In this document: one piece after another, positions 2,486-28,441 of the stretch
Layout of the letters: the number at the start of each line of letters is the position of its first letter
Numbering within the stretch: the stretch's first letter is position 1
NCBI RefSeq assembly: GCF_000020025.1
Contig: NC_010631.1
Location: 270,001 to 302,000 of the forward strand
Source of the DNA: Nostoc punctiforme PCC 73102
GTDB taxonomy: Bacteria > Cyanobacteriota > Cyanobacteriia > Cyanobacteriales > Nostocaceae
Direction: 5' to 3'
DNA length: 32,000 bases
The notes under the pieces: model-generated
Database searches by the model: none
The model's input: the letters and a program-made list of their open reading frames with translations, nothing else
Told to the model about the DNA's origin: nothing
Translations under genes and position numbers: made by a program

Positions 2486-3247
2486 TCAGCTTGATTCAAG
2501 GTTCACGTAGACTGTAGAAAAATCCAGTCGCTTCAAGTCTTCTCTATGAATGAGTACTTGCAGGTAGCCAGCATCGCCAAACATCACCTCAACTGCACTG
2601 CTAGAATCGACTTCCAACAAGTTATGCCAGTTCTGGGCGCGAGTCATGTCTAAGGCCTGCCGTTGCTCGTAGTTGTAAAGCCATTCGGGGTTAACCTCCC
2701 TAACTATATAAGCATCCTCCCGTGGATCATGTCCAATGCCCGAAACATGACCGAGCAGCTTACCGACACTGTTTTCACTGAGAGTTCTACCCAAATCATT
2801 TAACTTGAGTTCGTCCAAGTTGAGACGAGCGCACAGCCGCTCAAAATCATTTGTTGCCCAACGCGGGATATCGGGAAACAACTCAAACTCTAGACGGTGA
2901 GCTACTAAATTATCGTAGCAATCCGTAATCAAGCGAGTATCTTGGCTTAAATGTATCGCCTCTAAAGGTTCGCTCCCATCGTAAAATACTAGTTGCTCGG
3001 CACTATTTTCACTTTCATCAGCAAACAGATAAAGCATTCCCCGCTTTGTCAAAGGATTGTCTGGAAAAGTGGGTAATTCAGCAAAGTTAATCTGCAAGAT
3101 AAAGCAAAGGTAGCGGTCTAAAAGACTGTTTTTAGGCCAAGGAACGGACAAGGGTAAATCAGGAACTCCCCCAATACGGCTTTGTCCTTTATGTCCTGGT
3201 TCAGCTTGTCCAAGCTTTAACAAGATAGCCGGACGCACACTTGCCAA
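2486..3247 (-). CDS. DUF1963 (YwqG-like) domain protein
   Basis: The motifs SRIGGVPDLP, CFILQINFAELP, MLYLF and MFGDAGYLQVLI match the DUF1963/YwqG family pattern as I recall it. Confidence 0.7.
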   Translation of the reverse strand: MASVRPAILLKLGQAEPGHKGQSRIGGVPDLPLSVPWPKNSLLDRYLCFILQINFAELPTFPDNPLTKRGMLYLFADESENSAEQLVFYDGSEPLEAIHLSQDTRLITDCYDNLVAHRLEFELFPDIPRWATNDFERLCARLNLDELKLNDLGRTLSENSVGKLLGHVSGIGHDPREDAYIVREVNPEWLYNYEQRQALDMTRAQNWHNLLEVDSSSAVEVMFGDAGYLQVLIHREDLKRLDFSTVYVNLESS

Positions 3248-3857: not shown

Positions 3858-5444
3858 TTACTGTGAAAGATCCAGTCTTATCTGCCTTAAAACATCAATT
3901 ACCTCAGCCTGCCACAGCAAAGAGGGATGAGGCATAAATTTTCTGAGATTTTTAGCAGTAGGGGTAATGCCTTGTGCATGAAGTACTGAAGCGAGTTGGC
4001 GTACTTCTCGACAGCCTTGCTCAATAGCTAGTTTATGGACGAATTTGCGGTAATCTTTATAGCGTAAAGAAATAGCATGGCACACAATAGGGCAATAGTG
4101 GTAGAAAGTAGCCAAACCAATACCAGTTCTCTTAGCTATTTTTCTTAGAGAAGGTGGTGGATACTCGTCGCTAAACAAAGCTAATTCAAGTATGTCTCTG
4201 ATGTGTAAAAATCTTAGCTGCTGTTGATATTCACTATATCTAGTAGCCAAAGATGCTGATAAAGATTTTGAGCAAGCAGTTAAACTACTAGGAGTTTTGA
4301 ATCCTAAACGAACAGCTAATTGAGTTAAAGAAGGAGGTGGTTCTTCTTCTTGAGCTAGTTGCATCGCCTGAATAACTCGTTCGCACTTAGGACTACTATT
4401 TGAAGTAACTAAAGCAGACTGTGATGATAATTTTTTCTGTTTAGGAGCAGGTAGAGAAACTAGCTGCTTAAGAGTAAGAGGTAGTATTTTAAGTTGAAGA
4501 AAATCGACAAGATTAGTTGATAAGGCGTAGCAGATTTTCAAAAGTTTATCTAAATTTGGGATGGCTACACCTGAATACCAATGTAGAATTTCATATCTCG
4601 ATAACCCAAGCCAACGACCAAAAGCGGAAACATTACCTTGAGTATATTGATAGACGTAAGCTTCTAGGATTGTTTTAATAGTCTCTCTTGGAGGTGGACA
4701 AGGAAATTCAGGAGCTTGAGCAATTAAATCTCCTAAAGTCTTAACTATCCAAATCTCTTGCTGTAAATTGGGTATCTCCTCGAACAATCTCTTATCTGGC
4801 AAAGATACTTCATAGTTCATCCCCAACCAACCACCACATTTCAGACAAAATCCAGGTCGTGAGTTATGCCACAGGTGTAAAAATTCAAGGTCACAGTGAG
4901 GACATTTTGATTCTAAAAATCGATAATGGATGGGACAAATGTTAGCTGGTTTCAAAGCCCACAGCAGAGGTGAATAAATGACTTGTTGATTATTTAACCA
5001 GTCTTGATAGCAATAAGGACACCAAGCATGAGAATGCTTGAGCAATCCCAAAACTGGGAAGACTTTTGCCCAAGGTAGCATTGTCAAAAACTGTAAGTCA
5101 GTACGTTTTGTCAATATTTCTAGAGCAAAAACCAGTTGTTTAGCTCCAATTTGTGTTCCGTTTAAAGCTTTTACAGAAGCTTGTCCATACAAACTTACGA
5201 TACTTTTAGAATTCAAGGGATTGGTAGTATGGTTATGCCCAACTATTGGTTTTATCTCTCTAGCCAATAAAGTTCCAGGCAATACGCTATGAGCTGCGGC
5301 TAGACGAGCAACATAGCTAGTCAGACTTTCAACATAACAAGTACCAAGTCCAATCGGTTCCAGATGAAACAACCGGCTAGGACTGGGAGTAAATTCTGGG
5401 TCTTTGAGCCACAATTCATCGTTAACCGCCATGTTAGTCATCAT
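3858..5444 (-). CDS. tniQ: TniQ family target-selection protein, long TnsD-like form (528 aa)
   Basis: The N-terminal TniQ domain has LFHLEPIGLGTCYVESLTSYVARLAAAH and Cys/His clusters (CPYC, CPIH, CPHC, CLKCG). The C-terminal half has three HTH-like units, each introduced by PPP(R/S) (PPPRETIKTILEAY, PPPSLTQLAVRLGF, PPPSLRKIAKRTGI). The start overlaps the tnsC stop by 11 nt. Confidence 0.85.
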   Translation of the reverse strand: MMTNMAVNDELWLKDPEFTPSPSRLFHLEPIGLGTCYVESLTSYVARLAAAHSVLPGTLLAREIKPIVGHNHTTNPLNSKSIVSLYGQASVKALNGTQIGAKQLVFALEILTKRTDLQFLTMLPWAKVFPVLGLLKHSHAWCPYCYQDWLNNQQVIYSPLLWALKPANICPIHYRFLESKCPHCDLEFLHLWHNSRPGFCLKCGGWLGMNYEVSLPDKRLFEEIPNLQQEIWIVKTLGDLIAQAPEFPCPPPRETIKTILEAYVYQYTQGNVSAFGRWLGLSRYEILHWYSGVAIPNLDKLLKICYALSTNLVDFLQLKILPLTLKQLVSLPAPKQKKLSSQSALVTSNSSPKCERVIQAMQLAQEEEPPPSLTQLAVRLGFKTPSSLTACSKSLSASLATRYSEYQQQLRFLHIRDILELALFSDEYPPPSLRKIAKRTGIGLATFYHYCPIVCHAISLRYKDYRKFVHKLAIEQGCREVRQLASVLHAQGITPTAKNLRKFMPHPSLLWQAEVIDVLRQIRLDLSQ

Positions 5445-6573
5445 CTGAATTTACCCCTACATCATCTCTTTTAGGTTTTCTTTGTCCAACACGACCTTTT
5501 TTGAGTAGGGAATTTTTGGCTGGCATTTTTATTCCATGTTCTGTTGAATATTGCCGCTCAAAAAAACTGGATTCTTCTTGAAAGCGTTTAAATCCCTGTT
5601 GTGCTTCTTCCTTAATTTTGTTGATACGAGATGCAGAAAAAGCACCTAATTTAAGATGTTTGCTATTAAGAGTCCGAGCTTCTTCAGAATAGGCAACTCT
5701 CAAAGAACGAGTTAACCAATTCTTCAATAGCCCCACACAACCAACTGAGCCAGAAAAAAGATACTCATAGTGTTGTTCTAATTTTGGTTCTTGTACAAGC
5801 GGAATGTGGCGTTGAAAAGTTCTAATTACTCTAATAAATTCAGCAATATCTTCTGGGTTATCAGCTTGGTAAGGTAACAGGTGAATATCTTCGCTACGCC
5901 GCCCTATTTGCCCATTCAAGGTAGGACAGTTAAGCAGTTCATAAGTTCCAAATAAAATATGTACTGTACCAGTAAGATTAGCAATAGACTTAATCCAGTT
6001 CATTTGCTGTAACATCTGGTGTCCGCCTGCCATCATAAATAAATGCTGTGCCTCGTCTACAGTAAAAGCTTTTACCTGACGATAACGAAATGCTTTTTCC
6101 ATTGCTCGGCGTAATGCGGGCGAATCTTGGCGGTAAGCCCGATTTAGCAACCCCAAATCCTTTACCTCACCGTGAGGAATTTCATAATCAATTTTGTATT
6201 CAATCAAAACTTCCTGAAGGGATTCTAGGGCGCGAGTGTAATAATCTTTATAGCTAAACTTTCCTTGTTCTGTTGGAATAGCTTCAATACCAGCAACAGC
6301 AATTTGACCAGGATTTTGGCGTAATGAGGGGAGAAATTCGTAATTTAGCAGATTTTCCAGACGCAAGCGTAAGGTTGTTTTTCCTACACCAGTCACACCA
6401 AAAACTAAAAATACTAAAGTGTCAGCTGGCTCCAGAATATTAATTAATAAAGTATCTAAGGCTTGTTTGAGCCTTTGATGTGGAATAGTGATACTTTTGA
6501 AATAATCAGTTTTAATTTCGTTCGGCTGTAAGAGAAGTTCTTCTGGAAAAGAGTGCGACTGAATTTTTACCAT
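5434..6573 (-). CDS. tnsC: TnsC/TniB-type AAA+ ATPase
   Basis: Walker A is FGVTGVGKTT and Walker B is FTVDEAQHL. The gene lies between the transposase and tniQ, and its start overlaps the tnsB stop by 7 nt. Confidence 0.85.
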   Translation of the reverse strand: MVKIQSHSFPEELLLQPNEIKTDYFKSITIPHQRLKQALDTLLINILEPADTLVFLVFGVTGVGKTTLRLRLENLLNYEFLPSLRQNPGQIAVAGIEAIPTEQGKFSYKDYYTRALESLQEVLIEYKIDYEIPHGEVKDLGLLNRAYRQDSPALRRAMEKAFRYRQVKAFTVDEAQHLFMMAGGHQMLQQMNWIKSIANLTGTVHILFGTYELLNCPTLNGQIGRRSEDIHLLPYQADNPEDIAEFIRVIRTFQRHIPLVQEPKLEQHYEYLFSGSVGCVGLLKNWLTRSLRVAYSEEARTLNSKHLKLGAFSASRINKIKEEAQQGFKRFQEESSFFERQYSTEHGIKMPAKNSLLKKGRVGQRKPKRDDVGVNSDDD

Positions 6574-9176
6574 AGCTCCTCTGTATTGTAAGCTTCTATT
6601 TTGGTTAAATCTATTAATTTTTTTGCTGATGATTTTGGCTTTTTAATGCTTTCTGAACCTGCCAAAATATTTTTATCTACATCTTGAACATTAGCTGAAT
6701 AATTGTGTTTACTTAATTTACTTTCAATAACTGAGCTTTTTTCAATTAAAACCCAAATATCTTGTTGTGCTAAATCATGTAAGCGTTGTAATAACAAAGT
6801 TTCTTGGGCTTCAGTTCCTTCTAAATATGTAGCTTTTTCTTGGGCAGATAGAGTAATTCTTTGAGCGTGTTTCTGCCTTTTTCGACGTAATTGTGTGCTG
6901 GCTATGTTCACTTCTTTTTCGGAACGATTTTGGAAGGATTTGTAATGTTCAGAAATACAGCGTATCCAACGTCCCTTAACGTAAGCATAAGCAGTCCCCA
7001 TATCAAAAGGGTCGTAACGAATAGGTACATTAGTTCCTTCAATTTCTGGTCTTATGAACGAATCATCAATTGACCAATAGTAGAGATAATTAATTTTCAC
7101 GCCTCTACTTGGTTGAACTTTTGCAGTTCCTTTAGGTGTAGAAGGTAAGGTAAAAATCTTAAAATTATCATCATAAATAATCTGTTTCTGAGGGCGATAA
7201 CCACTTGAATTTAGCCCTGACATAAAAGTTTGACGTGGGCTTTGTCCTAATGTTGGATGTTCTCTGCAATCATAGAATTCGTAACAATATGAACAAAAGT
7301 TTTCGTAGAGTTGATCTAGTGTCCAAACAGCTTGATTTTTGGGATTATTTGATTTCGTGACTTGGCGGACATTCTTAGTAATTTGAGTGTTGCCTCTAAG
7401 ATTATAAAAAAACTCTGTATTTGTAGTTCCAAAAATACGTTCAATAATTGAACCAAATCTGGCTTTCGCAGCTGGTCGCTGCTTTTTGGTACATTCAAAA
7501 GCCGCTAACAAGGTCTCAAAGTATGTACTACTAAATTCTGTCCCACCGTCAACAACTATTGTCTCTGGTAATTTCTCAAATCGCTGTACGCAGATTCTTA
7601 ATACCATCATGCAACTACGGTAGCTTGGCTCGTCAAAAGTTAGGTAAACTGCGAGAATACGTCGGCTGTAAGCATCGATTAACAGAGTTGCCCAAGGTCT
7701 ACCAAGAAGATAACCTGTTCGGGAGCATACTAACTCAATATCCAGTTGCGTATGGTCAATGTGTGCTATCTCAAATGGACGGTCGCCATGACATGGTGTG
7801 GTTAATTTCAACTCCCAATACAATAAAGATTGTTGATAAGCTGCTCTGTTTCCCTTACGTTTTTTTGTTTGCCTATAACCAGAACGATGTTGAATTCTAG
7901 AACAAAATGTAGCGTAGCTAGGCAGCTTATCTGTTAGACCTGCTTTCTCCCATTCTCTTGCTAGAATTCCATAAACAGCTAGTTTGCTTCTTTGTTGAAA
8001 AGTTTCATAATATTCTTCAATTATTTTGTCAATGAAATCTTGAGACGATTGAGAAATTCTGGGTAAGCGATTGCCTCTAGCATTAGAGTTATTTAGCAGC
8101 CCAATATAACCACATTTGTACGCCTTTTGTGCTGCTATAAACTTAGCCTTCCATCTGCGAATAGTACGTTGTGGAACAGTTTCTTTATCTCTATAACTGT
8201 CATTAAGATAAGGTTCAATTACTTCATATCTTCGGTTAGCTTCTGCCAAGTCTTCAGGACTAGCTCTCAAAAAACGCTCCATTGCTTTTGGAGACATTTT
8301 TACTTGATTATGAGTTTTAGGTTCCAGTTGATTGGGTTTAACATCTAAAATATTCAGAATCGTTCCATTATTCGGTTGCGATTTTATCATTTGTACATAA
8401 GCTACCGCGATTTCTTGGTCACGGAAAAGCTGTACTTTTTCTGGCTCTGCTAAGGGTGCGGCACTCAAATTAATGTAAATTTTTTTTGTAGCTATTAAAG
8501 CATTTATGTCATCAGGATTGCTCTGTTGAGTATGAATCATTTCCCAATAACTTATGCCCGGATTTAAGCTAATTAACTTCACCAAATTTTCAGCTATTTC
8601 TGGGTCAATTTGGTAATCTTCAGTAGTATAGGCTTTGAGAAATAGTCGATTTCTGTATTTAATCCAATCAATTTCTGTATCTAACCGAATTCGGTAATAC
8701 AGTCCTAATTTTTCTGCATAAGCAACTGCTGGCAGGTTTAACCACTGCCCATCTTCTGAACGCATATAACGTTGTGATTGTTTAGCTGCTAATTTTTCTA
8801 ATCTTGATTCTGGTTTCCACTCTTCAAAACCTGCACTCCGCTTCCGAATTACGAAAAAGTCTGGTATATGCGAAGCTTTGATTATTTCCCCACTGCTTGA
8901 GGGGAATTCTAGAGTAATTTGATATGCTTGGTCGTAGTATTCGAGTACATCTGCGTCTTCTTCGTACTCCTCTACACCTGGCAATTCAATTTTATGGGAC
9001 TCAAATTGAATAGTTTTTCCCATTTTGCGACTGGCGTAGTCGCCCCGGACATTTATACCACTGCTTTTGACTCGCCGAATTGGTTCAGAGGCACGGATTT
9101 GGGAAATTAATTGCCTAGCCTCTTGTGGTAAATTTACGCCGCGACACCAATCATTAAACTCTTGGTCGCTCAACAT
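6567..9176 (-). CDS. tnsB: TnsB (Mu/retroviral-type DDE transposase) with an N-terminal TnsA-like endonuclease module (869 aa from the ATG)
   Basis: DDE triad candidates are AHIDHTQLD, TIVVDGGTEF and IIERIFGTTNTEF. A Mu-transposase C-terminal motif is present (VKINYLYYWS...VPIRYDPFDMGTAYAYVKGRWIRC). The N-terminal approx. 130 aa carry PD-(D/E)xK-like motifs resembling TnsA: FESHKIE, DADVLEYYDQ, HIPDFFV and FEEWKP. The ATG at 9176 is preferred over the GTG at 9218 used by the ORF track. Confidence 0.85.
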   Translation of the reverse strand: MLSDQEFNDWCRGVNLPQEARQLISQIRASEPIRRVKSSGINVRGDYASRKMGKTIQFESHKIELPGVEEYEEDADVLEYYDQAYQITLEFPSSSGEIIKASHIPDFFVIRKRSAGFEEWKPESRLEKLAAKQSQRYMRSEDGQWLNLPAVAYAEKLGLYYRIRLDTEIDWIKYRNRLFLKAYTTEDYQIDPEIAENLVKLISLNPGISYWEMIHTQQSNPDDINALIATKKIYINLSAAPLAEPEKVQLFRDQEIAVAYVQMIKSQPNNGTILNILDVKPNQLEPKTHNQVKMSPKAMERFLRASPEDLAEANRRYEVIEPYLNDSYRDKETVPQRTIRRWKAKFIAAQKAYKCGYIGLLNNSNARGNRLPRISQSSQDFIDKIIEEYYETFQQRSKLAVYGILAREWEKAGLTDKLPSYATFCSRIQHRSGYRQTKKRKGNRAAYQQSLLYWELKLTTPCHGDRPFEIAHIDHTQLDIELVCSRTGYLLGRPWATLLIDAYSRRILAVYLTFDEPSYRSCMMVLRICVQRFEKLPETIVVDGGTEFSSTYFETLLAAFECTKKQRPAAKARFGSIIERIFGTTNTEFFYNLRGNTQITKNVRQVTKSNNPKNQAVWTLDQLYENFCSYCYEFYDCREHPTLGQSPRQTFMSGLNSSGYRPQKQIIYDDNFKIFTLPSTPKGTAKVQPSRGVKINYLYYWSIDDSFIRPEIEGTNVPIRYDPFDMGTAYAYVKGRWIRCISEHYKSFQNRSEKEVNIASTQLRRKRQKHAQRITLSAQEKATYLEGTEAQETLLLQRLHDLAQQDIWVLIEKSSVIESKLSKHNYSANVQDVDKNILAGSESIKKPKSSAKKLIDLTKIEAYNTEELW

Positions 9177-9286
9177 ATTGGCCCCCAAGCTTTTAAAGCC
9201 GCAACAAGCTCTTACCACAAATCTAGGCTTTCGCCAGTTAAACAGTCTTTTATTGATATAAATATTTATACTTACCAGTTCAGATG

Positions 9287-9337
9287 ACTGCGGCCACTTT
9301 ATGGTTTAAAAACGGCCACAATATCCTTTAAGTGACA
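9287..9337 (-). repeat. Tn7-like terminal inverted repeat, tnsB-proximal end
   Basis: The reverse complement is TGTCACTTAAAGGATATTGTGGCCGTTTTTAAACCATAAAGTGGCCGCAGT, with one mismatch to the other end. Confidence 0.9.
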
Positions 9338-9352
9338 ACTTTTTTCTAATTT

Positions 9353-9559
9353 ATGGATCAAAATTTTTCTCACATTATGATTCAAAGCATACTTAATCCT
9401 TTGCCGCGTAAACGCTGGGAGCAAACTTCAGCCTGGACAATTGACGCAGTACTCAATGGCAAAATGTTAACTTATGAAAGAGCGAGTCTACTAACAGCAG
9501 CACGGGTAATTCCACAAGAGAATATGATTAAGACATGGCAAATGTACACTCACTTATAA
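9353..9559 (+). CDS. hypothetical 68-aa ORF beside the transposon end
   Basis: ATG-started ORF beginning 15 bp from the transposon end and overlapping the next gene by 25 nt. No motif recognised, and it may not be coding. Confidence 0.3.
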   Translation: MDQNFSHIMIQSILNPLPRKRWEQTSAWTIDAVLNGKMLTYERASLLTAARVIPQENMIKTWQMYTHL

Positions 9560-11193
9560 ACCAGCCCAATAAAAGAGACGATTTAACAGCTCGCCGCATT
9601 CGATTTTTTGAAGGACGCTACGGAACTAATGCGCTCTTATTGGCTTGTCATGCTGCTTTTCCCCTTACCCTCACTTCAGATTTACTCTACTGTTTGCGTG
9701 AGAATTTTGTTCTTGATGCCCCTTGGTATGCAGTCGCTGATGTGTTGTTATCAGGGTTATGCCAACCTGTAGGATATGACCTTTATGAAATGGAAGGTGA
9801 AACTAGAGATGGCTTGCTGAGTCGTTTATGTGAGCATTTTGGAGAACAGCGACTTAAGGAACTGGCGAATTTTATGTCTGCGTATATTACCTGTCGCTTG
9901 CAGGTTGAGAATAATGACCGTGCTTTGGTATTTGGACAACGCCCAGACTGGACAGCATTAGCATACTTGAGTTCAGATAAGCAAGAGGTAATTAACGCCA
10001 TAACGCAGGAGTTGCGAAGATTGACAGCTTCCACAGATGCTAAAGAGCGTATCAGATGGGCAGCTTTAATAGAAAATTATGCTGACCTATTATCACAAAA
10101 AGGTTTTGAGCCATTGTTGTTGGAATTGTCACAGCAAGCACTCAATGGCGAACCCATACAGGATGAAGAGGAGAAAGAAATTGCCGCAGCAACGGGAGTT
10201 TCGTTGCAAACTTTTGAATTTGACGTGACAACTATCATCTTAGACGATGAGCCAGGGGAAGAATTGCAAACTTTTGAGTTTGACACCGTAACAGTAGATG
10301 CTCGTGGAAAAGTAATTAACAAAGAACGAAAGCAAGCATTTTATTTTATTGAGTTTTTGGGTGAAGCAGCAGGAAAGCCATCAAAACTCTTGATAGAGAT
10401 GGTAGCTATTCCTGGAGGAACTTTTGAAATGGGGTCGCCACCAGATGAGCCAGAACGTTATGATGATGAGAATCCCCAGTATAGAGTCACTGTGCAGCCG
10501 TTTTTCTTGGCTAAGTATCCAGTCACTCAAGCGCAGTGGCAATTTGTGGCGCAGTTACCCCAGGTAAATCGGGAGCTAGATCGAGATCCATCTGATTTTA
10601 AAGGTGCAAACCGACCTGTCGAAAATGTCTCTTGGTACGATGCGGTTGAATTTTGCGATCGCTTATCTCAGTATACAGGTAGACCATACACCCTCCCTAG
10701 TGAAGCAGAATGGGAATATGCGTGTAGAGCCGGAACAACAACTCCATTCCATTTTGGCGAAACGATAACGTCAGATTTAGCTAACTATGATGCTAGGAGT
10801 AGATTTGACGGCAGTGAAGGACTTTTTGATGATATGCAAGGCAACTTTGATGATGGATCGAAAGGAATTTATCGAAAAGAAACAACAGTTGTAGGCAGCT
10901 TCAAAGTTGCAAACGCCTTTGGATTATACGATATGCACGGAAACGTATTGGAATGGTGTTTTGATGATTGGCACAGCAACTATGAAGGTGCGCCGATAGA
11001 TGGCGGTGCTTGGTTTGATGATAATGATAATATTTACCAAAAACGAGGAGCAGCCGTTCTGCGGGGCGGTTCCTGGATCGGCAATCCTGATTTCTGCCGT
11101 TCCGCATCCCGCGACAGCGGCAGCACGCGCGACTACCACTTCAACTATTTTGGTTTTCGTGTTATGTGCGGAGTTGGGAGAATTCTTCAGTAG
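9535..11193 (+). CDS. two-part protein: N-terminal helical domain of unknown function plus C-terminal FGE-sulfatase (SUMF1/C-type-lectin fold) domain
   Basis: The C-terminal approx. 260 aa have FGE-sulfatase hallmarks: IPGGTFEMGSP, RVTVQPFFLAKYPVTQAQW, PVENVSWYDAVEFCDRLS, YTLPSEAEWEYACRAGT, NAFGLYDMHGNVLEWC, LRGGSW and GFRV. This is preceded by a duplicated LQTFEFD linker that I recall from cyanobacterial members of the family. Confidence 0.85.
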   Translation: MANVHSLINQPNKRDDLTARRIRFFEGRYGTNALLLACHAAFPLTLTSDLLYCLRENFVLDAPWYAVADVLLSGLCQPVGYDLYEMEGETRDGLLSRLCEHFGEQRLKELANFMSAYITCRLQVENNDRALVFGQRPDWTALAYLSSDKQEVINAITQELRRLTASTDAKERIRWAALIENYADLLSQKGFEPLLLELSQQALNGEPIQDEEEKEIAAATGVSLQTFEFDVTTIILDDEPGEELQTFEFDTVTVDARGKVINKERKQAFYFIEFLGEAAGKPSKLLIEMVAIPGGTFEMGSPPDEPERYDDENPQYRVTVQPFFLAKYPVTQAQWQFVAQLPQVNRELDRDPSDFKGANRPVENVSWYDAVEFCDRLSQYTGRPYTLPSEAEWEYACRAGTTTPFHFGETITSDLANYDARSRFDGSEGLFDDMQGNFDDGSKGIYRKETTVVGSFKVANAFGLYDMHGNVLEWCFDDWHSNYEGAPIDGGAWFDDNDNIYQKRGAAVLRGGSWIGNPDFCRSASRDSGSTRDYHFNYFGFRVMCGVGRILQ

Positions 11194-11335
11194 CCCTTTA
11201 GCCCTTTACTCTTCTTTTTTTTGCCCTTTGTTAGCGAAGCGGAGAGTTATCAAATTTTTTTCAAAATTCAAGCTAGGAAAAGAATAAACGCCAATTGAGC
11301 GAGAAAGTTAAGCAAGAAGATACACATAAAAATTA

Positions 11336-12187
11336 ATGGTAAAAATACTCACTAAACGACAAACAGCGCAATGTTTTATCGAAGACTTGGGCAATGGAAT
11401 TAAACTAGAGATGGTGCTGCTGCAACGTGGTAGTTTTCTAATGGGCGCTCCAGAAACAGAAGAAGGAAGCAGTGATGATGAACGTCCTCAGCACGAAGTA
11501 ACTGTTCCAACTTTTTTTATAGGCAAGTATCCACTCACTCAAGCACAGTGGAAAGCAGTAGCAGCACTACCACAGGTTAACAAAGAGCTAAAAGCTAAAC
11601 CATCGCGTTTTAAAGGCGCAGATCGCCCTGTTGAGCAAGTTTCTTGGGAGGATGCGGTTGAATTTTGCGATCGCCTGACTGCCCATACTAAAAGACAATA
11701 CCGCCTGCCTAGCGAAGCCGAATGGGAATATGCCTGTCGTGCTGGAACTACTAGCCCATTTCACTTTGGCGAAACAATTACGACCGATTTAGCTAATTAC
11801 CAAGGTACAGATAACAAAGAATATGAATGGTCGGGTTCTTATGGACGAGGGCCAAAAGGTATCTATCGACAAGAGACTACGCCTGTGGGCAGTTTTGGGG
11901 TAGCTAACGCCTTTGGATTATACGATATGCACGGAAACGTATGGGAATGGTGTCTCGACAATTGGCACGACAACTATGAAGGTGCGCCTATAGATGGCAG
12001 TGCTTGGCTTAATGATAATAATAACTTTTCTCAAAAAAAAGAAAATGCTGTGCTGCGGGGCGGTTCCTGGCTCGGCTATCCTTATGACTGCCGGTCTGCG
12101 TCCCGTGACTACTATTGGGCGGGGCGCGACATCATTCTCTACACTATTGGTTTTCGTGTTGTGTGCGCTGTCGGCAGGATTCTTTAG
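11336..12187 (+). CDS. stand-alone FGE-sulfatase (SUMF1/C-type-lectin fold) domain protein
   Basis: Same motif series as the upstream gene: FLMGAPE, YPLTQAQW, PVEQVSWEDAVEFCDRL, YRLPSEAEWEYACRAGT, NAFGLYDMHGNVWEWC, LRGGSW and GFRVVC. It is clearly a paralog of the 9535-11193 C-terminal domain. Confidence 0.85.
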   Translation: MVKILTKRQTAQCFIEDLGNGIKLEMVLLQRGSFLMGAPETEEGSSDDERPQHEVTVPTFFIGKYPLTQAQWKAVAALPQVNKELKAKPSRFKGADRPVEQVSWEDAVEFCDRLTAHTKRQYRLPSEAEWEYACRAGTTSPFHFGETITTDLANYQGTDNKEYEWSGSYGRGPKGIYRQETTPVGSFGVANAFGLYDMHGNVWEWCLDNWHDNYEGAPIDGSAWLNDNNNFSQKKENAVLRGGSWLGYPYDCRSASRDYYWAGRDIILYTIGFRVVCAVGRIL

Positions 12188-13665
12188 TCGCCACGAATTG
12201 GTAATTGCGAATTGGAGATGACACTGCTTATAAGTGGGGATGGGAGCGAGTCGCAGATTATGCCATCAACACAAGCAATTCCCCACTGCGGAAACTTCGC
12301 TAATAGTTTTTTGATCACGATCTGTAAGGTCGGATCATCATTCCAGCATTTTTGGAGGAAGTCAAAGCCCGGATTTTCCCCAACCAGAGAAGCCATCTTC
12401 AGTTTCTCCATTCGCAATAGTCTAGTCTTGGATCTCATGGCGATGTCTTCAGAGCTAAACAACGCCTCACTAGATTTTTGCACCTGATAATTGACTACAG
12501 ATATATTCCACTGTTTCTCAAACTTGCTGATTGTTGCCCTCATACTGGCGTAATACTTGCTGTCTAGCAAATATTGAATTACCCACAATGGGGGGCATTC
12601 TCCTGCATCTGCTCGATCTAACCATTCAAATATCTCACTTTGAGTTAATGACACCGGCGCGGCGGAACAAGTGCCTTCATGACAGTCCCTCGCCTCAACA
12701 CCACAATCTTGGTTTTCAACTAACAACGGAGCGGAATTACTTTGTTCTGCTTGCCTCTGTGTTTGATTAGCGATCACAGAATTTAAAGATTTTTCATTTT
12801 GGGCGACGGGCGCGGCGGAACAAGTACCTTCATGAGGGGATATCGCTTCAACACCACAATCCTGGCTTTCTCCTATCGACAAAGCAGATTCACCCTGTAC
12901 AGCATCCACAAGCGTCAGTGATGTACAATCCATTGCCGTAGGCAATTCTTCAAGTTCTGACGCGCTTTCGATACGTTGAGGCGACGCGCCCCCCAAGGGC
13001 GCATGAGCCGTTTCTTCAACACGCGGATTTTCAGTTGGCGCGTCAGAACCAACTACCATACCAACAACCTTAGTTGGTTGTTGGTAGGTAGTTAACGGGT
13101 AGTTAGAAACGTTGTTAGGATTTTGGAACCCTTGCAAATCCTCACTTTTTTGACCATTCTTTTGGAATGATTCCAAATCAGACTGAATTTGTTCCACGCC
13201 AGGGTAATTTTCATTCCGTCCGGGCGCATTTGTTTCCTCCCCGGCGTGGACGGCTTTCTCGTCACAAAAATTGGTTTCCTCAGACGTGGATGATTCCCAG
13301 TAAAAACGATTGTAATAACCGCGCAAGTTACGGACACGGTAGCTAATCAATCCTGGTCTACCAGAAGGTAAGCGACCAAATACTTCCTCAAATTGAAACA
13401 ATCCTTGAGCGCTTAACGCCGCCCCTGCTTTTTGCAAAGATTTGTAGGTGAGGTTAGTATCGAGTTTATGAGCAGAACCCCCGAATTGTTCAGCCGCCAC
13501 GCTATCCAACCAAAGCTGCTGCACAGATGGAGGCTGTTGACGAACCCAGTTGATATCCTCAATCGATACCTTGCAATGTGGTCTAATCGATTTATCTGCT
13601 TCAGCAAGTTTCCGCTCGTTTCGTTGTTGGCTACCACCGTTGATTGCTTTTAACGCTGTAGTCAT
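12184..13665 (-). CDS. multi-domain protein: N-terminal wHTH/Rep-like region, two HEGTCSAAPV repeat units, C-terminal KFPQWGI module (493 aa)
   Basis: The ATG at 13665 is preceded by AGGAGG and is preferred over the track start at 13704. An internal 51-aa repeat is present (CGVEAISPHEGTCSAAPV / CGVEARDCHEGTCSAAPV). The C-terminal module is shared with 489-998 and 2002-2272. The Rep-like assignment is inferred only from context and a basic N-terminus. Confidence 0.7.
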   Translation of the reverse strand: MTTALKAINGGSQQRNERKLAEADKSIRPHCKVSIEDINWVRQQPPSVQQLWLDSVAAEQFGGSAHKLDTNLTYKSLQKAGAALSAQGLFQFEEVFGRLPSGRPGLISYRVRNLRGYYNRFYWESSTSEETNFCDEKAVHAGEETNAPGRNENYPGVEQIQSDLESFQKNGQKSEDLQGFQNPNNVSNYPLTTYQQPTKVVGMVVGSDAPTENPRVEETAHAPLGGASPQRIESASELEELPTAMDCTSLTLVDAVQGESALSIGESQDCGVEAISPHEGTCSAAPVAQNEKSLNSVIANQTQRQAEQSNSAPLLVENQDCGVEARDCHEGTCSAAPVSLTQSEIFEWLDRADAGECPPLWVIQYLLDSKYYASMRATISKFEKQWNISVVNYQVQKSSEALFSSEDIAMRSKTRLLRMEKLKMASLVGENPGFDFLQKCWNDDPTLQIVIKKLLAKFPQWGIACVDGIICDSLPSPLISSVISNSQLPIRGD

Positions 13666-13756
13666 ATTTCCTCCTAAATTTTTCCATGACAATGTGAGCG
13701 GCATGGTTGCAATGCCACGTTTAAGTTTTTTGGCTCTTCTCTTAGCGAGTCTTTAT

Positions 13757-15337
13757 CTACTGGTTTTCGCCCTGCCAAAACCGCAACTCTTCCCTGGAAT
13801 AGCTTTGAGTCTTTTTCAACTCATTGCGCCAGTGATCCCAGGCGACAACTACTTTGCCCCCTACCTCCTCTACAACTTCGCCCCTCTGCAAATACAGAGT
13901 CCGGTACGGGTCAGCATGAGCAACAATAGAACCGATGCTAATTGTCTGAGGTTCAGTGGATGAGTTTTTGAGAGTTTTAATTAACTCTGTTTCCTGGGTA
14001 GTAAGTTCTGCCCAGTAATCCGACTTAATTACCTCATACTCTTGCGCCACTGCCCAATAGTCCTGCCACGTACACCCAGGCTTTGCAAGCACTGACCTAA
14101 TATCACTAACCGCCTGGGGTAACATCGACAACTGCTCGGCACGGTAAGCGATCGCAGTTAGTGTAGGTTCGCTCCCCAAAATTATCGCCGCTGCTTCGAG
14201 TGCTTGGGTGTTGTTCATAGCACTGGCGAGATTCTTCAACGCCATGCCCATGAGCCGCAGACATTCTTGGGCATTTTCTTTGGGTGGTTCAATTGCTAGC
14301 GATCGCAAATCAATGGTTTTCTCTAGGGCTTGTTTAACTTGCTTGTTCAACGCTTTAGTTGCTTGCTGGGTCATGGTATTTCCCCACTGTTGAGAAGGAC
14401 GTTCTTCTACGGCGTGTTCTAATTCCTGAATACGAGAAAAGAGTTTTTGATTTTCAATCTCCAGTTTCCTCAGCCCTTGCATCTCGTCCAATTGTTGCTG
14501 CAACTGAATATTCTGCTCTTTCTGTTGCTTGTACAGGTTTTGGAGGGATTGGATTTGCTCTTGCACTTGGGCTTCGGCTCTAGTAGCTGCTTCTGTTTGT
14601 AGTCCAATTCTCAATTCCTGGGAAAGTCGCTCTAACTCTTGCTGATGCTGTTCTTTAATTTGAGCGATCGCTTCCGTATATTCTGGTGGATAGTTCTGTT
14701 CTCTGGGGAATGGGACACTTGCGGCATCTAGATCCCCATTATTGACCAACAACCTCTCACCATCAGCAAAGGTAACAATCTGCTGCCAATGATTTGGTGC
14801 GTCTGCTGAGATCACTCCTGATTCCCCATAACGAGGGTGTTCTGGTGATGAAACTGTGACAGAATTACACAATTGCGTTTGGCTTTGTTCGCTTTTTGTA
14901 GAGCGTTTAACTGTTGGTGCAACCTCTTGCACCGCTTTGGCGAAGTCTGCGGCGGTGGGAAAGGGTTTTTCTTTGGCTGCGATCGCAACAGCTTGCTCTA
15001 ACTTATCGGGAGTTTTGACCAGTCGGAGCAAGGAGCGAGTTTGAGAGGGTTTGGTAATATGCGGCCTCAGTTCTTCTGGTAATGTATCAACTACTCGCTT
15101 GGCCGCAAATAGATCCTTGACCCGGCGATATCCCCCGTGTTTGGTCAACTCACTTTCGCAATAAGCTTCAAAGCTCTTGTGTCCACCATCTTGGTAATAG
15201 CCTTTGTCTCGCATCAGCCGCAGTTCATCAGATGCTTGCCACTCAAAACGGTCGATGGCGGTGAAGGTATCCAGGATACCGTTGTTCAATTTGGTGTAGT
15301 CGAGTGCTGATGTTTGTTCGGCTTCTAGTGTCAGCAT
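13757..15337 (-). CDS. coiled-coil protein with N-terminal DUF3102-like DNA-binding region and C-terminal SH3-like tail (526 aa)
   Basis: The N-terminus (FEAYCESELTKHGGYRRVKDLFAAKRVV) resembles plasmid/phage HTH proteins. A long Q/E/L-rich heptad region follows (QELERLSQEL...QQQLDEMQGLRKLEIENQKLFSRIQELEH). The gene is co-oriented with the 493-aa gene and 91 bp upstream of it. Confidence 0.65.
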   Translation of the reverse strand: MLTLEAEQTSALDYTKLNNGILDTFTAIDRFEWQASDELRLMRDKGYYQDGGHKSFEAYCESELTKHGGYRRVKDLFAAKRVVDTLPEELRPHITKPSQTRSLLRLVKTPDKLEQAVAIAAKEKPFPTAADFAKAVQEVAPTVKRSTKSEQSQTQLCNSVTVSSPEHPRYGESGVISADAPNHWQQIVTFADGERLLVNNGDLDAASVPFPREQNYPPEYTEAIAQIKEQHQQELERLSQELRIGLQTEAATRAEAQVQEQIQSLQNLYKQQKEQNIQLQQQLDEMQGLRKLEIENQKLFSRIQELEHAVEERPSQQWGNTMTQQATKALNKQVKQALEKTIDLRSLAIEPPKENAQECLRLMGMALKNLASAMNNTQALEAAAIILGSEPTLTAIAYRAEQLSMLPQAVSDIRSVLAKPGCTWQDYWAVAQEYEVIKSDYWAELTTQETELIKTLKNSSTEPQTISIGSIVAHADPYRTLYLQRGEVVEEVGGKVVVAWDHWRNELKKTQSYSREELRFWQGENQ

Positions 15338-15459
15338 GGCATTTTACGGTCTACTGATAATAAGGCAAGCAAATGCTTGTCTTGTTTACCTCGCGCTTCA
15401 AGTGCGGATAGCAAGTGTGTGAGCAAATGTTATTCGCGTTTGGGCGATTGCCTAAAAAA

Positions 15460-15491
15460 TTAAGTAGCCACATATTCTAGTGGCTACTTAA
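15460..15491 (-). terminator. rho-independent terminator-like hairpin
   Basis: A 12-bp perfect stem (TTAAGTAGCCAC / GTGGCTACTTAA) with an 8-nt loop, followed on the minus strand by TTTTTT. Confidence 0.6.
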
Positions 15492-15558
15492 AATCTAACA
15501 CCGAGCTAGCTTAAAATCAAGAAAATTATCTAGAATAAAATGGCATACCTTAAAAATG

Positions 15559-15586
15559 CTTCACCCCCTGTCAAGAGGGGGTGAAG
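15559..15586. terminator. bidirectional terminator-like hairpin downstream of the RHH gene
   Basis: An 11-bp GC-rich stem (CTTCACCCCCT / AGGGGGTGAAG) with a 6-nt loop. T-runs follow on both strands (TTTTCATTATTT on plus, CATTTTTAAGG on minus). Confidence 0.7.
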
Positions 15587-15631
15587 TTTTCATTATTTGA
15601 ACCAAGTTGTCGATTTGAGATGACATGGCTT

Positions 15632-15916
15632 TTAACTGACTTTTAAGCTGCTCATTCTCTCTTGCCAGCCCGGTTGTAACTCCCCCAAGACTTTCTTTAA
15701 AACTTCTACATCCTCTACTAGCTTGACTATATCCACTACATTGCTGTGGACAATCATCTCGCCTATATAATTCCTCATGTGGTTTTCGATATCTTCCGTA
15801 ATCGATATACCATCTTCTTTCAATTTTGTTTTGTACTTCTCGTATAACTCGGCATCTATCTTGATACCTAGCTGGGCAATTCGCCCTTGTGTCTCTGGCT
15901 TTTTGTTCGCAGGCAT
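15632..15916 (-). CDS. ribbon-helix-helix (CopG/Arc/MetJ-like) DNA-binding protein
   Basis: QLGIKIDAELYEKYKTKLKEDGISITEDIENHMRNYI fits the strand-helix-helix pattern. The gene is transcribed divergently from the long plus-strand operon across a palindrome-rich spacer. Confidence 0.65.
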   Translation of the reverse strand: MPANKKPETQGRIAQLGIKIDAELYEKYKTKLKEDGISITEDIENHMRNYIGEMIVHSNVVDIVKLVEDVEVLKKVLGELQPGWQERMSSLKVS

Positions 15917-15996
15917 ATTTTTCTGTTGGTCTTTATCAACAATATACTCTTGATCCAGAATAATCTCTGCAAACCTTATTGTAAGCCAACTTAATC

Positions 15997-16049
15997 ATCT
16001 AGATTTTTATCTTGACTAAATCTAGATTGTTTGCTAGATTATATCTAGA
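15997..16049 (+). promoter_or_regulatory. sigma70-type promoter overlapped by a CTAGA operator array
   Basis: TTGACT (16012-16017), a 17-bp spacer, then TAGATT (16035-16040). The palindrome ATCTAGAT occurs at 15997-16004 and 16020-27, with further CTAGAT/TCTAGA half-sites at 16034-39 and 16044-49. Confidence 0.6.
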
Positions 16050-17963: not shown

Positions 17964-18224
17964 ATGAAATTCACAACTGTCTCTGTTAGTTACTCTAGAA
18001 AATTCAATCTCGGCGACTATGAATTTCTAGAACTGGGTTGTTCTCTCTGGGCACAAGTCGAAGATGGAGAAGATGCTGATGGAATAACCCAATTCCTCTA
18101 TCATCAAGCCAAAGCTTCAGTAAAGCAAGCAGCAATACCTGTGCTAAAAGCCTCAGAGTTTCAAATTAATAAGGCTAAATCTAGCAAAAAAGTATCTGGT
18201 GATATTAGCGAAAGTGATTGGTAA
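17964..18224 (+). CDS. hypothetical protein (86 aa) immediately upstream of erf
   Basis: ATG ORF tightly packed in the operon. No family recognised. Confidence 0.55.
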   Translation: MKFTTVSVSYSRKFNLGDYEFLELGCSLWAQVEDGEDADGITQFLYHQAKASVKQAAIPVLKASEFQINKAKSSKKVSGDISESDW

Positions 18225-18238
18225 AGAGGAGCCGGACA

Positions 18239-19012
18239 ATGCAAGAATTAATCAAAGCTTTAATTAAAGCAAAGTCAGAGTTTAATCCCATTCAAAAAGA
18301 CGGTACTAATCCTCACTACAAGCGCAAATATGCAACACTAGATGCTGTATTAGATGCTGTCACTCCTGCGCTTGGTAAACATGGATTAGTGATAATTCAA
18401 ACTACTGAAATCTTTGAAGGTAAAACCGTGCTGCGGACTCATATTTTTCATGAATCTGGAGAGAGTATCACCAGCACTTATCCTTTACCTGAAGTTGCTG
18501 ACTCTCAGAAGTTTGGTGCAGCATTAACTTATGCACGACGATATGCAGTTTGTGCAATTTTATCGGTGACGGCAGATGAAGACAATGATGCTGAAGATGC
18601 AACTACTCCTCAAAAGCCTGAACAGCCACAGAATAACATTAGACCCCGCAAAGACAATCAACAGCCAAGAGTTCAGGCACCAAAACAAGCTGTAACTCCA
18701 CCATCAATCAGCCCAAAAGATTTGCGAGTCAAAGAAATTCGCACACTTTTAAATTATCCGTTGGATTTAGTCAAAGAGTGGTTGCATTCTCGAAATGTTA
18801 CGAGTCCAAGTGAGCTTGATTCTCTTCAAATTGATGAACTAGTGAAGACTATGTGTTTGGCTTGGGCTGGTAATAAGTTTGGACATTTGAATCATGCTGT
18901 TAACTCTTATCAGAAACACGTCGTCGACGCTGTGGCACGAGGTGTAGATGAAACAAGAGCAATCAACGACTGGATGGAAGGAGCGCTTGCACAATTGCCT
19001 GAACTGAATTGA
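18239..19012 (+). CDS. erf: ERF-family single-strand annealing recombinase
   Basis: NPHYKRKYATLDAVLDAVTPALGKHGLVIIQ and FGAALTYARRYAVCAILSV match the conserved ERF (essential recombination function) blocks. A low-complexity P/Q linker precedes the C-terminal tail. GAGGAG lies 7 nt upstream of the ATG at 18239 (the track started at the TTG at 18218). Confidence 0.8.
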   Translation: MQELIKALIKAKSEFNPIQKDGTNPHYKRKYATLDAVLDAVTPALGKHGLVIIQTTEIFEGKTVLRTHIFHESGESITSTYPLPEVADSQKFGAALTYARRYAVCAILSVTADEDNDAEDATTPQKPEQPQNNIRPRKDNQQPRVQAPKQAVTPPSISPKDLRVKEIRTLLNYPLDLVKEWLHSRNVTSPSELDSLQIDELVKTMCLAWAGNKFGHLNHAVNSYQKHVVDAVARGVDETRAINDWMEGALAQLPELN

Positions 19013-23149: not shown

Positions 23150-24605
23150 GTCAATACCGTTGCCAATTTACGAGGGTTCAACACCTGTGGAAAGGGGATG
23201 AATACGTCCCAAAGAAGTGAGCTTGGCAAAAATTTGGGCTAGTAAAATAGGCTCAGGCTTTTGAGGAAGTATTTTTAACATTTCATGAACATATCGAAAA
23301 CCACGGTAATAAGCTTTCAGGTCAATAATGCCAGAACCAGGATTATGTTTACGGAAATCAGCTAGAAGATGATGGGATAAATTGACCATAAAGAATGCAA
23401 TATTAGCAGCATTAGTCACAGCAGTTTGGCTCAGATTCATAAAATCTTCCAAGCCCCAGAATTGCTTGGCATCCCGAAAATTAAACTCGATTTGGAAACG
23501 AAGCTTGTAATAGTCAATAATTCTGTCAGCCGTCAAATCTAAGTCGCTGGAAAATAAAATTACATGGCTACGTATATTGGCTTTAAGATTAGTTTTGACT
23601 AAAATAACTACATTGAGAGACTGAGCAAATTCTTTGTGAAGAAGAGTAGCTTGATAAATATCAGTTTGAATTCCATCTTCAATATCACTTTTACACAAAT
23701 ATTTCTCAGGTAGATTACGGTAGTCTAGTTTTTCCCCGTATTTACGACGAGAACGTTTATTCGAGTCAGGATTTTCATAAGGGATGTATAATGCTGAATC
23801 ATGGCGCAGCTTGGAAATTATGTGCAAGTTAACTTGTCGTACCATCTGCAAGGCATTGTTGTTACCAAAATGACCATCTACTACCAAGTATGTCAAGGGG
23901 ATAAAGTTAGCTACTAGCTCAAATAGTGAGTTAATCATCTTTTTAATTAACAAGAGTTCAGATGTTAATATCACTTCGGTTTTGTTTTTATTCTTACTGC
24001 CTTTCGGTCGTCCCCGTCCACGTTTCTCTTTAGCTTTTACTTTTTTGATTGGCAAGGTGTTATTTATTTGGGCATCACTTTTAATTACCTGTTCTATTCC
24101 AATCGGAAATGATTGCCTTCCTTCTACGCTTACTAATGACAATACGAAGAAAGATAAACCATTAATTGGTTTACTAGCCAGGCTAGAAAAAAATCTATCT
24201 ACTCCGTAAGTTTGCTTCCCCGATTTACTAACTACAACTTCATCTCCTGCAAGCAAATACACATCATTTTTTCGCCACAAATGTTGACGAAAAAACAGCC
24301 AAAACAATGTTGCCCAAGGTATTACTGTAGAAAAAAATCTCCCCATTGTCCGATAGCTACCGCCATCACCTGCCCAACGGGCAATTCCCAACATCGTGAC
24401 TCGACCACTTAGAGCTAACATTGCCAGGATAATTTGGTTCAATTGCCGCATCGTTGTCGCGTTTATCTGCGGTAGCAGGCATTGCAGGAGTGATAAGATA
24501 TCGGGCATGGGTTGATTGTGGCTTTTGAGTTGTCGTTTGGGAAGACAATAACTCTACTACATCAGCCCTCTCTCTTCACCCTCTGATTTTGGCTAAGGTA
24601 TTGAC
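23150..24605 (-). mobile_element. IS4/IS701-like insertion sequence (1456 bp)
   Basis: A single DDE transposase ORF is bracketed by imperfect terminal inverted repeats: GTCAATACCGTTGCCAATTTACGAGGGT (23150-) versus the reverse complement of the 24605 end, GTCAATACCTTAGCCAAAATCAGAGGGT. No clear target duplication was seen. Confidence 0.7.
23168..24508 (-). CDS. IS4-superfamily (IS701/IS4-like) DDE transposase (446 aa)
   Basis: The N-terminus (LLPQINATTMRQLNQIILAMLALSGRVTMLGIARW) and blocks such as YLLAGDEVVVSKSGK, LVVDGHFGNN and YKLRFQIEFNFRDAKQ are typical of cyanobacterial IS4/IS701-type transposases. Confidence 0.75.
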   Translation of the reverse strand: MPDILSLLQCLLPQINATTMRQLNQIILAMLALSGRVTMLGIARWAGDGGSYRTMGRFFSTVIPWATLFWLFFRQHLWRKNDVYLLAGDEVVVSKSGKQTYGVDRFFSSLASKPINGLSFFVLSLVSVEGRQSFPIGIEQVIKSDAQINNTLPIKKVKAKEKRGRGRPKGSKNKNKTEVILTSELLLIKKMINSLFELVANFIPLTYLVVDGHFGNNNALQMVRQVNLHIISKLRHDSALYIPYENPDSNKRSRRKYGEKLDYRNLPEKYLCKSDIEDGIQTDIYQATLLHKEFAQSLNVVILVKTNLKANIRSHVILFSSDLDLTADRIIDYYKLRFQIEFNFRDAKQFWGLEDFMNLSQTAVTNAANIAFFMVNLSHHLLADFRKHNPGSGIIDLKAYYRGFRYVHEMLKILPQKPEPILLAQIFAKLTSLGRIHPLSTGVEPS

Positions 24606-27952: not shown

Positions 27953-28441
27953 ATCGCAATTCCAAAACAACTAATAAACTCGCAAATCAAGTCACCCCAA
28001 GTTTTCTTGATTGACCATGAGAATAATAATCGTGGTTTAACCGATACCAATGAAGCATTACAGCTAGCCGAAAGCCTAGAGTTAGACCTAGTATTAGTGT
28101 CTGAAGGAAAAGAGGCTCCAGTTGCAAAGATTCTGAATTATGGCAAGCTTCAGTATCAAAAGAAAAAGCGTCAGGCACAAAGTGCTAGACCAGTAGTAAA
28201 AGAAGTTCGGTTTGGTTTGAATATAGGTGTAGCTGATTATAAGTTACGTATTGAACAAGCAGTTGGGTGGTTGAGTAAAGGTGATTCGGTGAAGTTTGCT
28301 GTTCGTTTACGAGGTCGAGAACATCAATATCGTGACCAAGCTGGAGAACTACTAGACCGGGTTGTAAGTGATCTGAAGTCTGTAGGTAAAGTTCAATCAC
28401 TTGATAAGCGTTCACTAATTGCTTTAATCATTCCTGCCTAA
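27953..28441 (+). CDS. infC: divergent translation initiation factor IF-3 paralog, probable non-AUG start
   Basis: INSQIKSPQVFLID....EALQLAESLELDLVLVS....PVAKILNYGKLQYQKKK matches the IF-3 N-domain and linker. VKEVRF......DYKLRIEQAVGWLSKGDSVKFAVRLRGRE.....AGELLDRV matches the IF-3 C-domain. The frame is open from 27926 with no in-frame ATG. Candidate starts are ATT 27926, ATC 27953 (GGGAG lies 9 nt upstream), ATT 27959, ATA 27974 and TTG 28007 (track). Confidence 0.75.
   Translation: MAIPKQLINSQIKSPQVFLIDHENNNRGLTDTNEALQLAESLELDLVLVSEGKEAPVAKILNYGKLQYQKKKRQAQSARPVVKEVRFGLNIGVADYKLRIEQAVGWLSKGDSVKFAVRLRGREHQYRDQAGELLDRVVSDLKSVGKVQSLDKRSLIALIIPA

Follow-up and report, generated by a model that had tools for sequence, protein, structure and literature searches.

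Probable relic variable regions of a diversity-generating retroelement in two plasmid-borne lectin-fold genes of Nostoc punctiforme

A stretch of 32,000 nucleotides (nt) from Nostoc punctiforme PCC 73102 (NC_010631.1, positions 270,001 to 302,000 of the forward strand), referred to here as the window, belongs to what we take to be pNPUN01, the 354-kb plasmid of this strain, and carries two neighboring paralogous genes on its plus strand. Paralog 1 (9535-11193) encodes 552 amino acids (aa) and paralog 2 (11336-12187) encodes 283 aa according to the list of open reading frames (ORFs). A Pfam search placed the FGE-sulfatase domain PF03781 at residues 288-543 of 552 in paralog 1 (E = 1.3e-53) and at residues 25-276 of 283 in paralog 2 (E = 1.7e-54), which consists of the FGE-sulfatase/C-type-lectin (CLec) domain only. 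The FGE-sulfatase label of both proteins rests on fold-level matches from Pfam and from sequence comparison with the PDB; TvpA (2y3c), a solved variable protein of a diversity-generating retroelement (DGR), matches paralog 2 by sequence with E = 2e-15. The translated C-termini, ...LRGGSWIGNPDFCRSASRDSGSTRDYHFNYFGFRVMCGVGRILQ in paralog 1 and ...LRGGSWLGYPYDCRSASRDYYWAGRDIILYTIGFRVVCAVGRIL in paralog 2, agree with the peptides quoted in a preliminary description of the locus, which proposed from the letters alone that the 3′ segments of both genes are variable regions (VRs) of a DGR. The comparisons reported here bear out that origin. The segments, which form the last ~45 codons of both genes at the 3′ end of the CLec/FGE-sulfatase-fold domain, are probably orphan VRs, that is, products of past homing that are now drifting.

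Both segments begin with an identical 18-mer, CTGCGGGGCGGTTCCTGG, then diverge and re-converge at GGTTTTCGTGTT; the divergence and re-convergence had been noted in the preliminary description. The core of VR1, from CTGCGGGGCGGTTCCTGG to GGTTTTCGT, occupies 102 nt (11059-11160, plus strand), with diversified codons at 11077-11151, and the core of VR2 occupies 105 nt (12053-12157, plus strand), with diversified codons at 12071-12148, a difference of 3 nt between the anchors. Upstream, the plasmid sequence flanking the VRs reads ...GAGCAGCCGTT or ...AATGCTGTG, and downstream it reads GTTATGTGCGGAG or GTTGTGTGCGCTG. The differing codons had been described as mostly NNC or NNT, and the third codon position is indeed C or T in 23 of 25 codons of the first segment and 21 of 26 of the second. 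Adenines are scarce, with 16 in 108 nt (11058-11165) and 12 in 111 nt (12053-12163), close to the earlier hand counts of 15 in about 106 and 12 in about 109; the window average is 29.3% A, and the 108 nt preceding each segment contain 31 and 37 adenines. The depletion has binomial p values of 3e-4 and 3e-6, the two segments belong to the lowest 0.9% and the lowest 0.08% of plus-strand 108-nt windows ranked by A content, and GC content reaches 0.62 and 0.60, respectively. An A-poor composition by itself is only moderately unusual and is not decisive. The question of VR origin was decided by comparison with real template repeats (TRs) and by the entropy profile of the protein family rather than by composition. 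In an alignment of 116 relatives of the 283-aa protein, entropy peaks at residues 246-248, 250-251, 258-263, and 266-270; the corresponding codons, set between invariant scaffold residues, are exactly those that differ between the two paralogs of the window.

Neither a third copy of the repeat (blastn, word size 7) nor a reverse transcriptase (RT) ORF (ORF list) is present in the window, and searches with tblastn, using the Scytonema RT and the DGR protein Avd as queries, and with blastn found no remnant of a DGR RT or Avd there, in agreement with the preliminary description, which had noted neither an RT nor a TR in this DNA. It had also proposed a search of the whole genome for DGR machinery and held that its reading would fall if the genome had no RT or TR and variation in orthologs of close relatives were spread evenly; the chromosome has a DGR RT, an Avd, and a TR. 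The N. punctiforme TR was taken from contigs L126, L128, and related contigs of public assemblies, and its 108-nt core (L126, 1376-1483) is identical to the TR of Scytonema HK-05. Compared to this core, VR1 shows 18 mismatches at A, 3 mismatches at other positions (non-A), and a gap of 6 nt (Fisher p 4e-9), and VR2 shows 17 mismatches at A, 4 non-A mismatches, and a gap of 3 nt in an AAC run (Fisher p 1e-8); the identities are 76% and 78%, respectively. In the 18-nt 3′ tail that follows GGTTTTCGT, VR1 differs from the TR at 6 positions and VR2 at 4. A TR with mismatches confined to its adenines had been expected; the strong bias toward adenines stands, but the confinement does not, in view of the 3-4 non-A mismatches and the gaps.

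As a yardstick for these numbers, 18 in-locus cognate TR-VR pairs from 13 loci were used, with the chromosomal VRs of Npun_F4889 and Npun_F4890 outside the set. Non-A mismatches number 0 in 13 of these pairs, 1 in 4, and 2 in 1, and the 18-nt tail shows 0-1 mismatches in the cyanobacterial pairs. Both ranges are exceeded by the window VRs, with 3-4 non-A mismatches and 4-6 tail mismatches. A cognate TR would match its VR in length and at essentially all non-A positions, and the only TR known in the genome does not do so for either segment. The 4 non-A differences of VR2 all fall at third positions and are silent, affecting 4 of the 21 scaffold codons, and the third-position divergence of paralog 2 from its Scytonema ortholog in the gene body is 33%. 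These synonymous differences look like drift after the last homing event. VR1 has 1-2 such changes compared to 25% in its gene body, and this smaller number suggests that VR1 was written more recently.

Comparison with the 19 distinct TR cores of the loci fetched separated the two segments further. The best fit of VR1 is the 102-nt TR of Nostoc desertorum CM1-VF14 (L111, 6850-6951), with 16 mismatches at A, 2 non-A mismatches, and no gap, and the best fit of VR2 is the 108-nt TR class with one AAC-type codon missing. Since VR1 fits the 102-nt class, the two VRs appear to come from different templates, which upholds the earlier argument that they cannot both be copies of a single TR. TR cores of 99, 102, 105, and 108 nt coexist in Nostocales. 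N. punctiforme and Scytonema HK-05 (L026, minus strand, ~4405-4515) have the same 108-nt core despite RTs that are only 84% identical, and the RTs of N. desertorum and N. punctiforme share a 90% cluster although the N. desertorum TR is of the 102-nt class. It is conceivable, but on balance unlikely, that the plasmid pair records template turnover, in which two TR length classes wrote neighboring genes and the genome now keeps one of them.

A scan of the genome collection for the shared 18-mer returned at least 120 loci, many of them with cassettes, which form the comparison set. The best match to the window among the at least 120 loci listed is in Scytonema HK-05 (AP018194.1, L026), with ~80% nucleotide identity over 10242-12192, and this blastn match ends at window position 12192. 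The gene order is the same in both, with a 540-aa target followed by a 284-aa target in Scytonema, where a 114-aa Avd-like protein, a 352-aa RT, and the TR come next. Among the best 120 relatives of each paralog, the closest are these Scytonema proteins (SAMD00079811_35710, 80% full-length, and SAMD00079811_35700, 80%). Unlike the window, the Scytonema cassette is intact: both of its VRs are 108 nt long, they differ from the TR at 17 and 16 adenines only, and their 3′ tails are identical to it, whereas in the window everything past the second target is missing. Nostoc sp. UHCC 0926 carries a similar pair on plasmid pn2 (NZ_CP117770.1, L136), a long FGE gene followed by a short one, but as part of a complete cassette with avd (annotated as DGR Avd) and RT. 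The cassette of N. desertorum CM1-VF14, whose TR has the length of VR1, is likewise complete, in contrast to the targets-only arrangement of the window.

Targets at a distance from the RT are known from other systems. Remote DGR targets such as the Treponema denticola TvpA paralogs and the cyanobacterial remote variable proteins (RVPs) resemble the window genes in their CLec fold, in their distance from the RT, and in a 3′ segment that is similar to a TR, and DGR targets of the FGE-sulfatase/CLec fold are regarded as binding modules (PMC7517822). Compared to the remote targets of Wu et al. 2018 (PMC5758913), for which "only A-to-N differences, allowing minor exceptions" were accepted and which must belong to no other DGR, the window VRs are set apart by their 3-4 non-A differences together with indels and tail mismatches; they fall short of that definition and satisfy the looser one of PMC7517822, at least 50% nucleotide identity. 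Decay of cassettes has also been seen in Nostocales, often beside transposases, as in the RT-only remnant of Anabaena sp. 90 (PMC7517822) and the 69-aa RT fragment of Nostoc sphaeroides CCNUC1. Like such degraded cassettes, the window pair adjoins a transposition module, which is of the Tn7-like type. Unlike them, it has kept the targets and lost the RT side, whereas in those genomes it is an RT remnant that survives.

The sequences downstream of the two VRs differ. The 3′ homology of VR1, with a segment (GTTATGTGCGGAGTTGGGAGAATTCTTCAGTAG) that resembles an initiation of mutagenic homing (IMH) element, lies at 11161-11193 (plus strand) and matches the motif at VR ends in this clade. The 3′ segment of VR2, with the breakpoint, lies at 12158-12192 (plus strand), and its homology to the cassettes ends 5 nt past the stop codon. 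A non-coding module of ~80 nt follows the stop codons of DGR targets and consists of TAGCCCTTTATACTTTAG..GCCCTTTAC, a pyrimidine tract, and a final part in which a T-run is combined with either a short GC hairpin or AGCGAAGCGG.... Aligned by eye, it was found in 37 distinct VR tails and after no TR, in L026, L111, L136, L127, and ~30 other loci from many cyanobacterial genera; the Scytonema HK-05 cassette has it, as does VR1. The remnant behind VR1 (11191-11265, plus strand) comprises TAGCCCTTTA/GCCCTTTAC, the pyrimidine tract, GCGAAGC, and a T-run, with an internal deletion of 15 nt between two AGCCCTTTA repeats; it is nearly identical to the module of the first VR of L136, its closest counterpart. 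Since homology to the cassettes ends at 12192, VR2 has no such module, and its tail is unrelated to the conserved one. No GC-rich inverted repeat (seed of at least 6) was found after VR1, VR2, or the first Scytonema VR. In the BPP-1 model, a downstream hairpin or structure is needed for efficient homing (PMC3240598). Judged from its sequence and position, the cyanobacterial module could be a cis element for homing, a terminator, or both; no description of it was met in the DGR papers cited here.

The chromosomal DGR of N. punctiforme PCC 73102 comprises the targets Npun_F4889 and Npun_F4890, the Avd Npun_F4891, the RT Npun_F4892 (ACC83238.1), and a TR (PMC7517822, PMC12691664), and the same element is attributed to Doulatov 2004 in a passage of PMC3521204. 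Published surveys list one DGR for N. punctiforme (PMC7517822, PMC12691664). ACC83238.1, encoded on the 8,234,322-bp chromosome, is present in 21 Logan contigs, and Logan assemblies yielded it together with bAvd and the TR; one of these contigs is from SRR12750584, which belongs to the same run series as two of the assemblies that contain paralog 1. The chromosomal DGR and the window have CLec/FGE-sulfatase targets in common, as well as the two-gene architecture in which a protein with an N-terminal extension and a CLec domain is followed by a CLec-only protein. The chromosomal TR likewise has the 18-nt 5′ anchor and the 3′ anchor GGTTTTCGTGTT of both window VRs, and most differences fall at its adenines. 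Unlike the chromosomal DGR, the window pair lies on a plasmid without adjacent avd, RT, or TR, and its VRs are 6 and 3 nt shorter than the TR. No chromosomal protein of N. punctiforme is among the best 120 relatives of either paralog, which indicates that the window genes did not arise by recent copying of their chromosomal counterparts.

Table S3 of the published survey (PMC7517822) lists eight CLec paralogs, among them the adjacent ACC85069.1 (unknown N-terminal extension and CLec) and ACC85070.1 (CLec only, labeled a "remote variable protein"). Judging by architecture, order, and accession range, paralog 1 is probably ACC85069.1 and paralog 2 is probably ACC85070.1. One Logan contig, L127 (SRR16479526, 152-4903), joins a gene for a 1073-aa Peptidase_C14-CLec protein directly to the N. 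punctiforme avd-RT. This gene was considered as the chromosomal VR gene beside avd and was rejected, because the survey lists the avd neighbor as CLec-only; for the same reason the contig is probably chimeric at the shared 3′ flank of the VRs, unless it reflects a rearrangement in that strain.

Neither paralog has a protein of at least 90% identity, and both are singleton clusters among 15 billion proteins. The exact gene for paralog 1 is present in four Logan assemblies (SRR12750586, SRR12750587, SRR14512086, and SRR14512088), 100% identical to the window, so that the consensus sequence of VR1 is the same across four independent public assemblies, which come from two run series. Exact look-ups of the 283-aa protein, a 493-aa neighbor, and a guessed partial product (11720-12187) gave no match in public assemblies, and VR2 therefore does not lend itself to comparison across runs. 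All four public contigs with paralog 1 (L001-L004) stop at exactly window position 11749, within paralog 2, which is why the intact 283-aa gene is missing from those assemblies; the shared end suggests that a further CLec paralog, at a different place in the genome, contains the same k-mer. The N-terminal ~280 aa of paralog 1 had no match in the Pfam search. This part (9535-10380) represents a widespread Nostocales family that has no Pfam model, and in some longer relatives an EAD9 (PF19962) effector-associated domain sits before the FGE domain, which hints at a link to NTPase-based conflict systems.

Directly upstream of paralog 1 lies the Tn7-like transposition module (3858-9218, minus strand), with an 883-aa TnsB-like protein (rve and Mu-transpos_C), a 379-aa AAA/TniB protein, and a 528-aa TniQ. 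On the other side, a convergent plasmid-backbone ORF of 506 aa from the ORF list (12184-13704, minus strand) overlaps the stop codon of paralog 2 and occupies the place that avd-RT-TR has in intact cassettes. The region 12276-16000 is ~83% identical to several Nostoc plasmids. No Pfam match was obtained for the ORFs at 12184-13704, 489-998, and 13757-15337 (all minus strand). The 506-aa ORF shares a C-terminal module (..LQIVIKKLL.KFPQWGIA.VDG..) with a 169-aa ORF and contains an internal repeat (ENQDCGVEA..HEGTCSAAPV). Mobile and accessory genes are abundant in the wider window (23168-24508, minus; 18218-19012, plus; 2486-3247, minus; 28007-28441, plus) and include a DDE_5 transposase, an ERF-family single-strand annealing protein, a DUF1963 protein, and an extra short copy of IF-3 (IF3_N and IF3_C). 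An Rfam scan of 9000-13000 returned matches at chance level only.

The explanation that we favor, with a probability of about 0.62, is that the two segments are orphan or relic DGR VRs, produced by past homing and now drifting. The gene pair would descend from a target-target-avd-RT-TR cassette like the intact one of Scytonema HK-05. In that cassette, a template RNA would have been reverse-transcribed with random misincorporation opposite adenines, and the resulting cDNA would have taken the place of the final ~100 nt in both lectin-fold genes, recoding ~15 codons predicted to contact ligand between the invariant scaffold codons (GGSW, P, CRSA, R, RD, GFRV). VR1 would last have been written by a template of the 102-nt class and VR2 by one of the 108-nt class, minus one AAC codon. 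The avd-RT-TR part may then have been lost by a rearrangement on the plasmid, with the breakpoint right past the stop codon of paralog 2, and the VRs would now evolve as ordinary coding sequence on a plasmid rich in mobile elements. Because they are out of register with the single chromosomal TR, the VRs would behave today as frozen, ordinarily evolving sequence. Collectively, the evidence supports describing the segments as variable regions by origin; that they are currently variable is doubtful.

Several observations weigh against relics that have fallen silent, and most of them would suit an alternative in which the chromosomal DGR (Npun_F4891/F4892 and its TR) still rewrites one of the two genes, or both, as remote targets in trans across replicons. 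DGRs can act in trans, and neither paralog ORF is disrupted. All 18 positions of the 5′ anchor agree with the TR, 12-17 nt of identity to the TR are left on the 3′ side (17 nt, ATTGGTTTTCGTGTTGT, in VR2), GGGAGAATTCTTCAGTAG of VR1 agrees with the IMH-like clade VR-end motif GGGAGGATTCTTCAGTAG at 17 of 18 positions (15 of 18 in VR2), and VR1 keeps most of the downstream module. Low-frequency variants are invisible in consensus assemblies, and the analysis covered 32 kb of the plasmid. The chromosomal DGR is reported to be expressed (RT, Avd, and TR) and weakly active, with weak A-specific diversity at its two targets (PMC12691664). Many DGRs tolerate non-canonical differences between TR and VR; substitutions at non-A positions are reported for 23% of DGRs and differences in length for 7%, above all among non-phage lineages (PMC5758913). 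In the yardstick set, 14 pairs have no gap and 4 have a gap of 3 nt, or one codon, and since the literature reports the same (PMC5758913), the argument that an indel relative to the TR proves inactivity was ruled out.

If the chromosomal DGR still reached the plasmid, rare homing would overwrite a whole VR, and the differences in length and at non-A positions would show only that the dominant allele is old. We nevertheless consider such live targeting unlikely, although clearly ahead of the alternatives discussed below. The non-A and 3′ tail mismatches exceed those of all 18 cognate pairs, another TR class explains VR1 better than the resident one does, and VR1 is the same in four later assemblies. 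VR2 has no downstream module, and homing in BPP-1 requires a downstream structure (PMC3240598). The label of ACC85070.1 as a remote variable protein favors live targeting, but it needed only the identity of at least 50% mentioned above. With its IMH-like motif and most of the post-VR module retained, VR1 is a likelier candidate for homing than VR2. A second DGR with TRs 102 and/or 105 nt long, at another place on the 354-kb plasmid or in the genome, would account for the nearly perfect fit of VR1 to a 102-nt TR class. Plasmids of Nostocales are known to carry DGRs (L136; PMC7517822), and the part of this replicon surveyed was 32 kb. Such a second DGR is improbable, in that two different extra TRs would be required, the surveys list a single DGR for this organism, and, of the best 120 relatives of the Scytonema RT together with the ten clusters examined, a single entry comes from N. 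punctiforme. The least probable explanation, to which we give hardly any credence, denies any link to a DGR and holds that divergence of the paralogs under diversifying selection, together with codon bias, gave the A-poor patchwork. Such a patchwork is not unique, as A content alone places the segments only within the lowest ~1% of windows, and equally A-poor windows exist. However, the mismatches to independent TRs are specific to adenines (p ~1e-8), synteny links the pair to intact cassettes, the codons that vary are those of the family's hypervariable columns, and VR1 retains the shared post-VR module.

The type of system described here is already well documented in cyanobacteria, with N. 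punctiforme as a standard example, and the locus is no new kind of system; it also seems to be contained in a published supplementary table (PMC7517822). What is new is that VR1, unflagged in the survey table, has an adenine scar as strong as that of the flagged VR2, that the two VRs are of different template length classes, and that neither VR fits the resident TR as closely as cognate pairs do. As orphan VRs, the pair provides a worked case of the fate of DGR targets after loss of the retroelement: the scar at adenines remains, silent changes build up at sites that homing would have reset, and the agreement with surviving templates deteriorates. Non-adenine mismatches, the match of the 3′ tail, the post-VR module, and the TR length class may serve as criteria for telling live targets from relics, a distinction that loose identity thresholds in surveys do not make. 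N. punctiforme is genetically tractable and deep resequencing data exist, so that the reach of the chromosomal DGR to the plasmid genes is directly testable. If the chromosomal DGR were found to still rewrite one of the plasmid VRs, it would be a documented case of homing across replicons, and such homing would alter the length of the VR and depend on the post-VR module.

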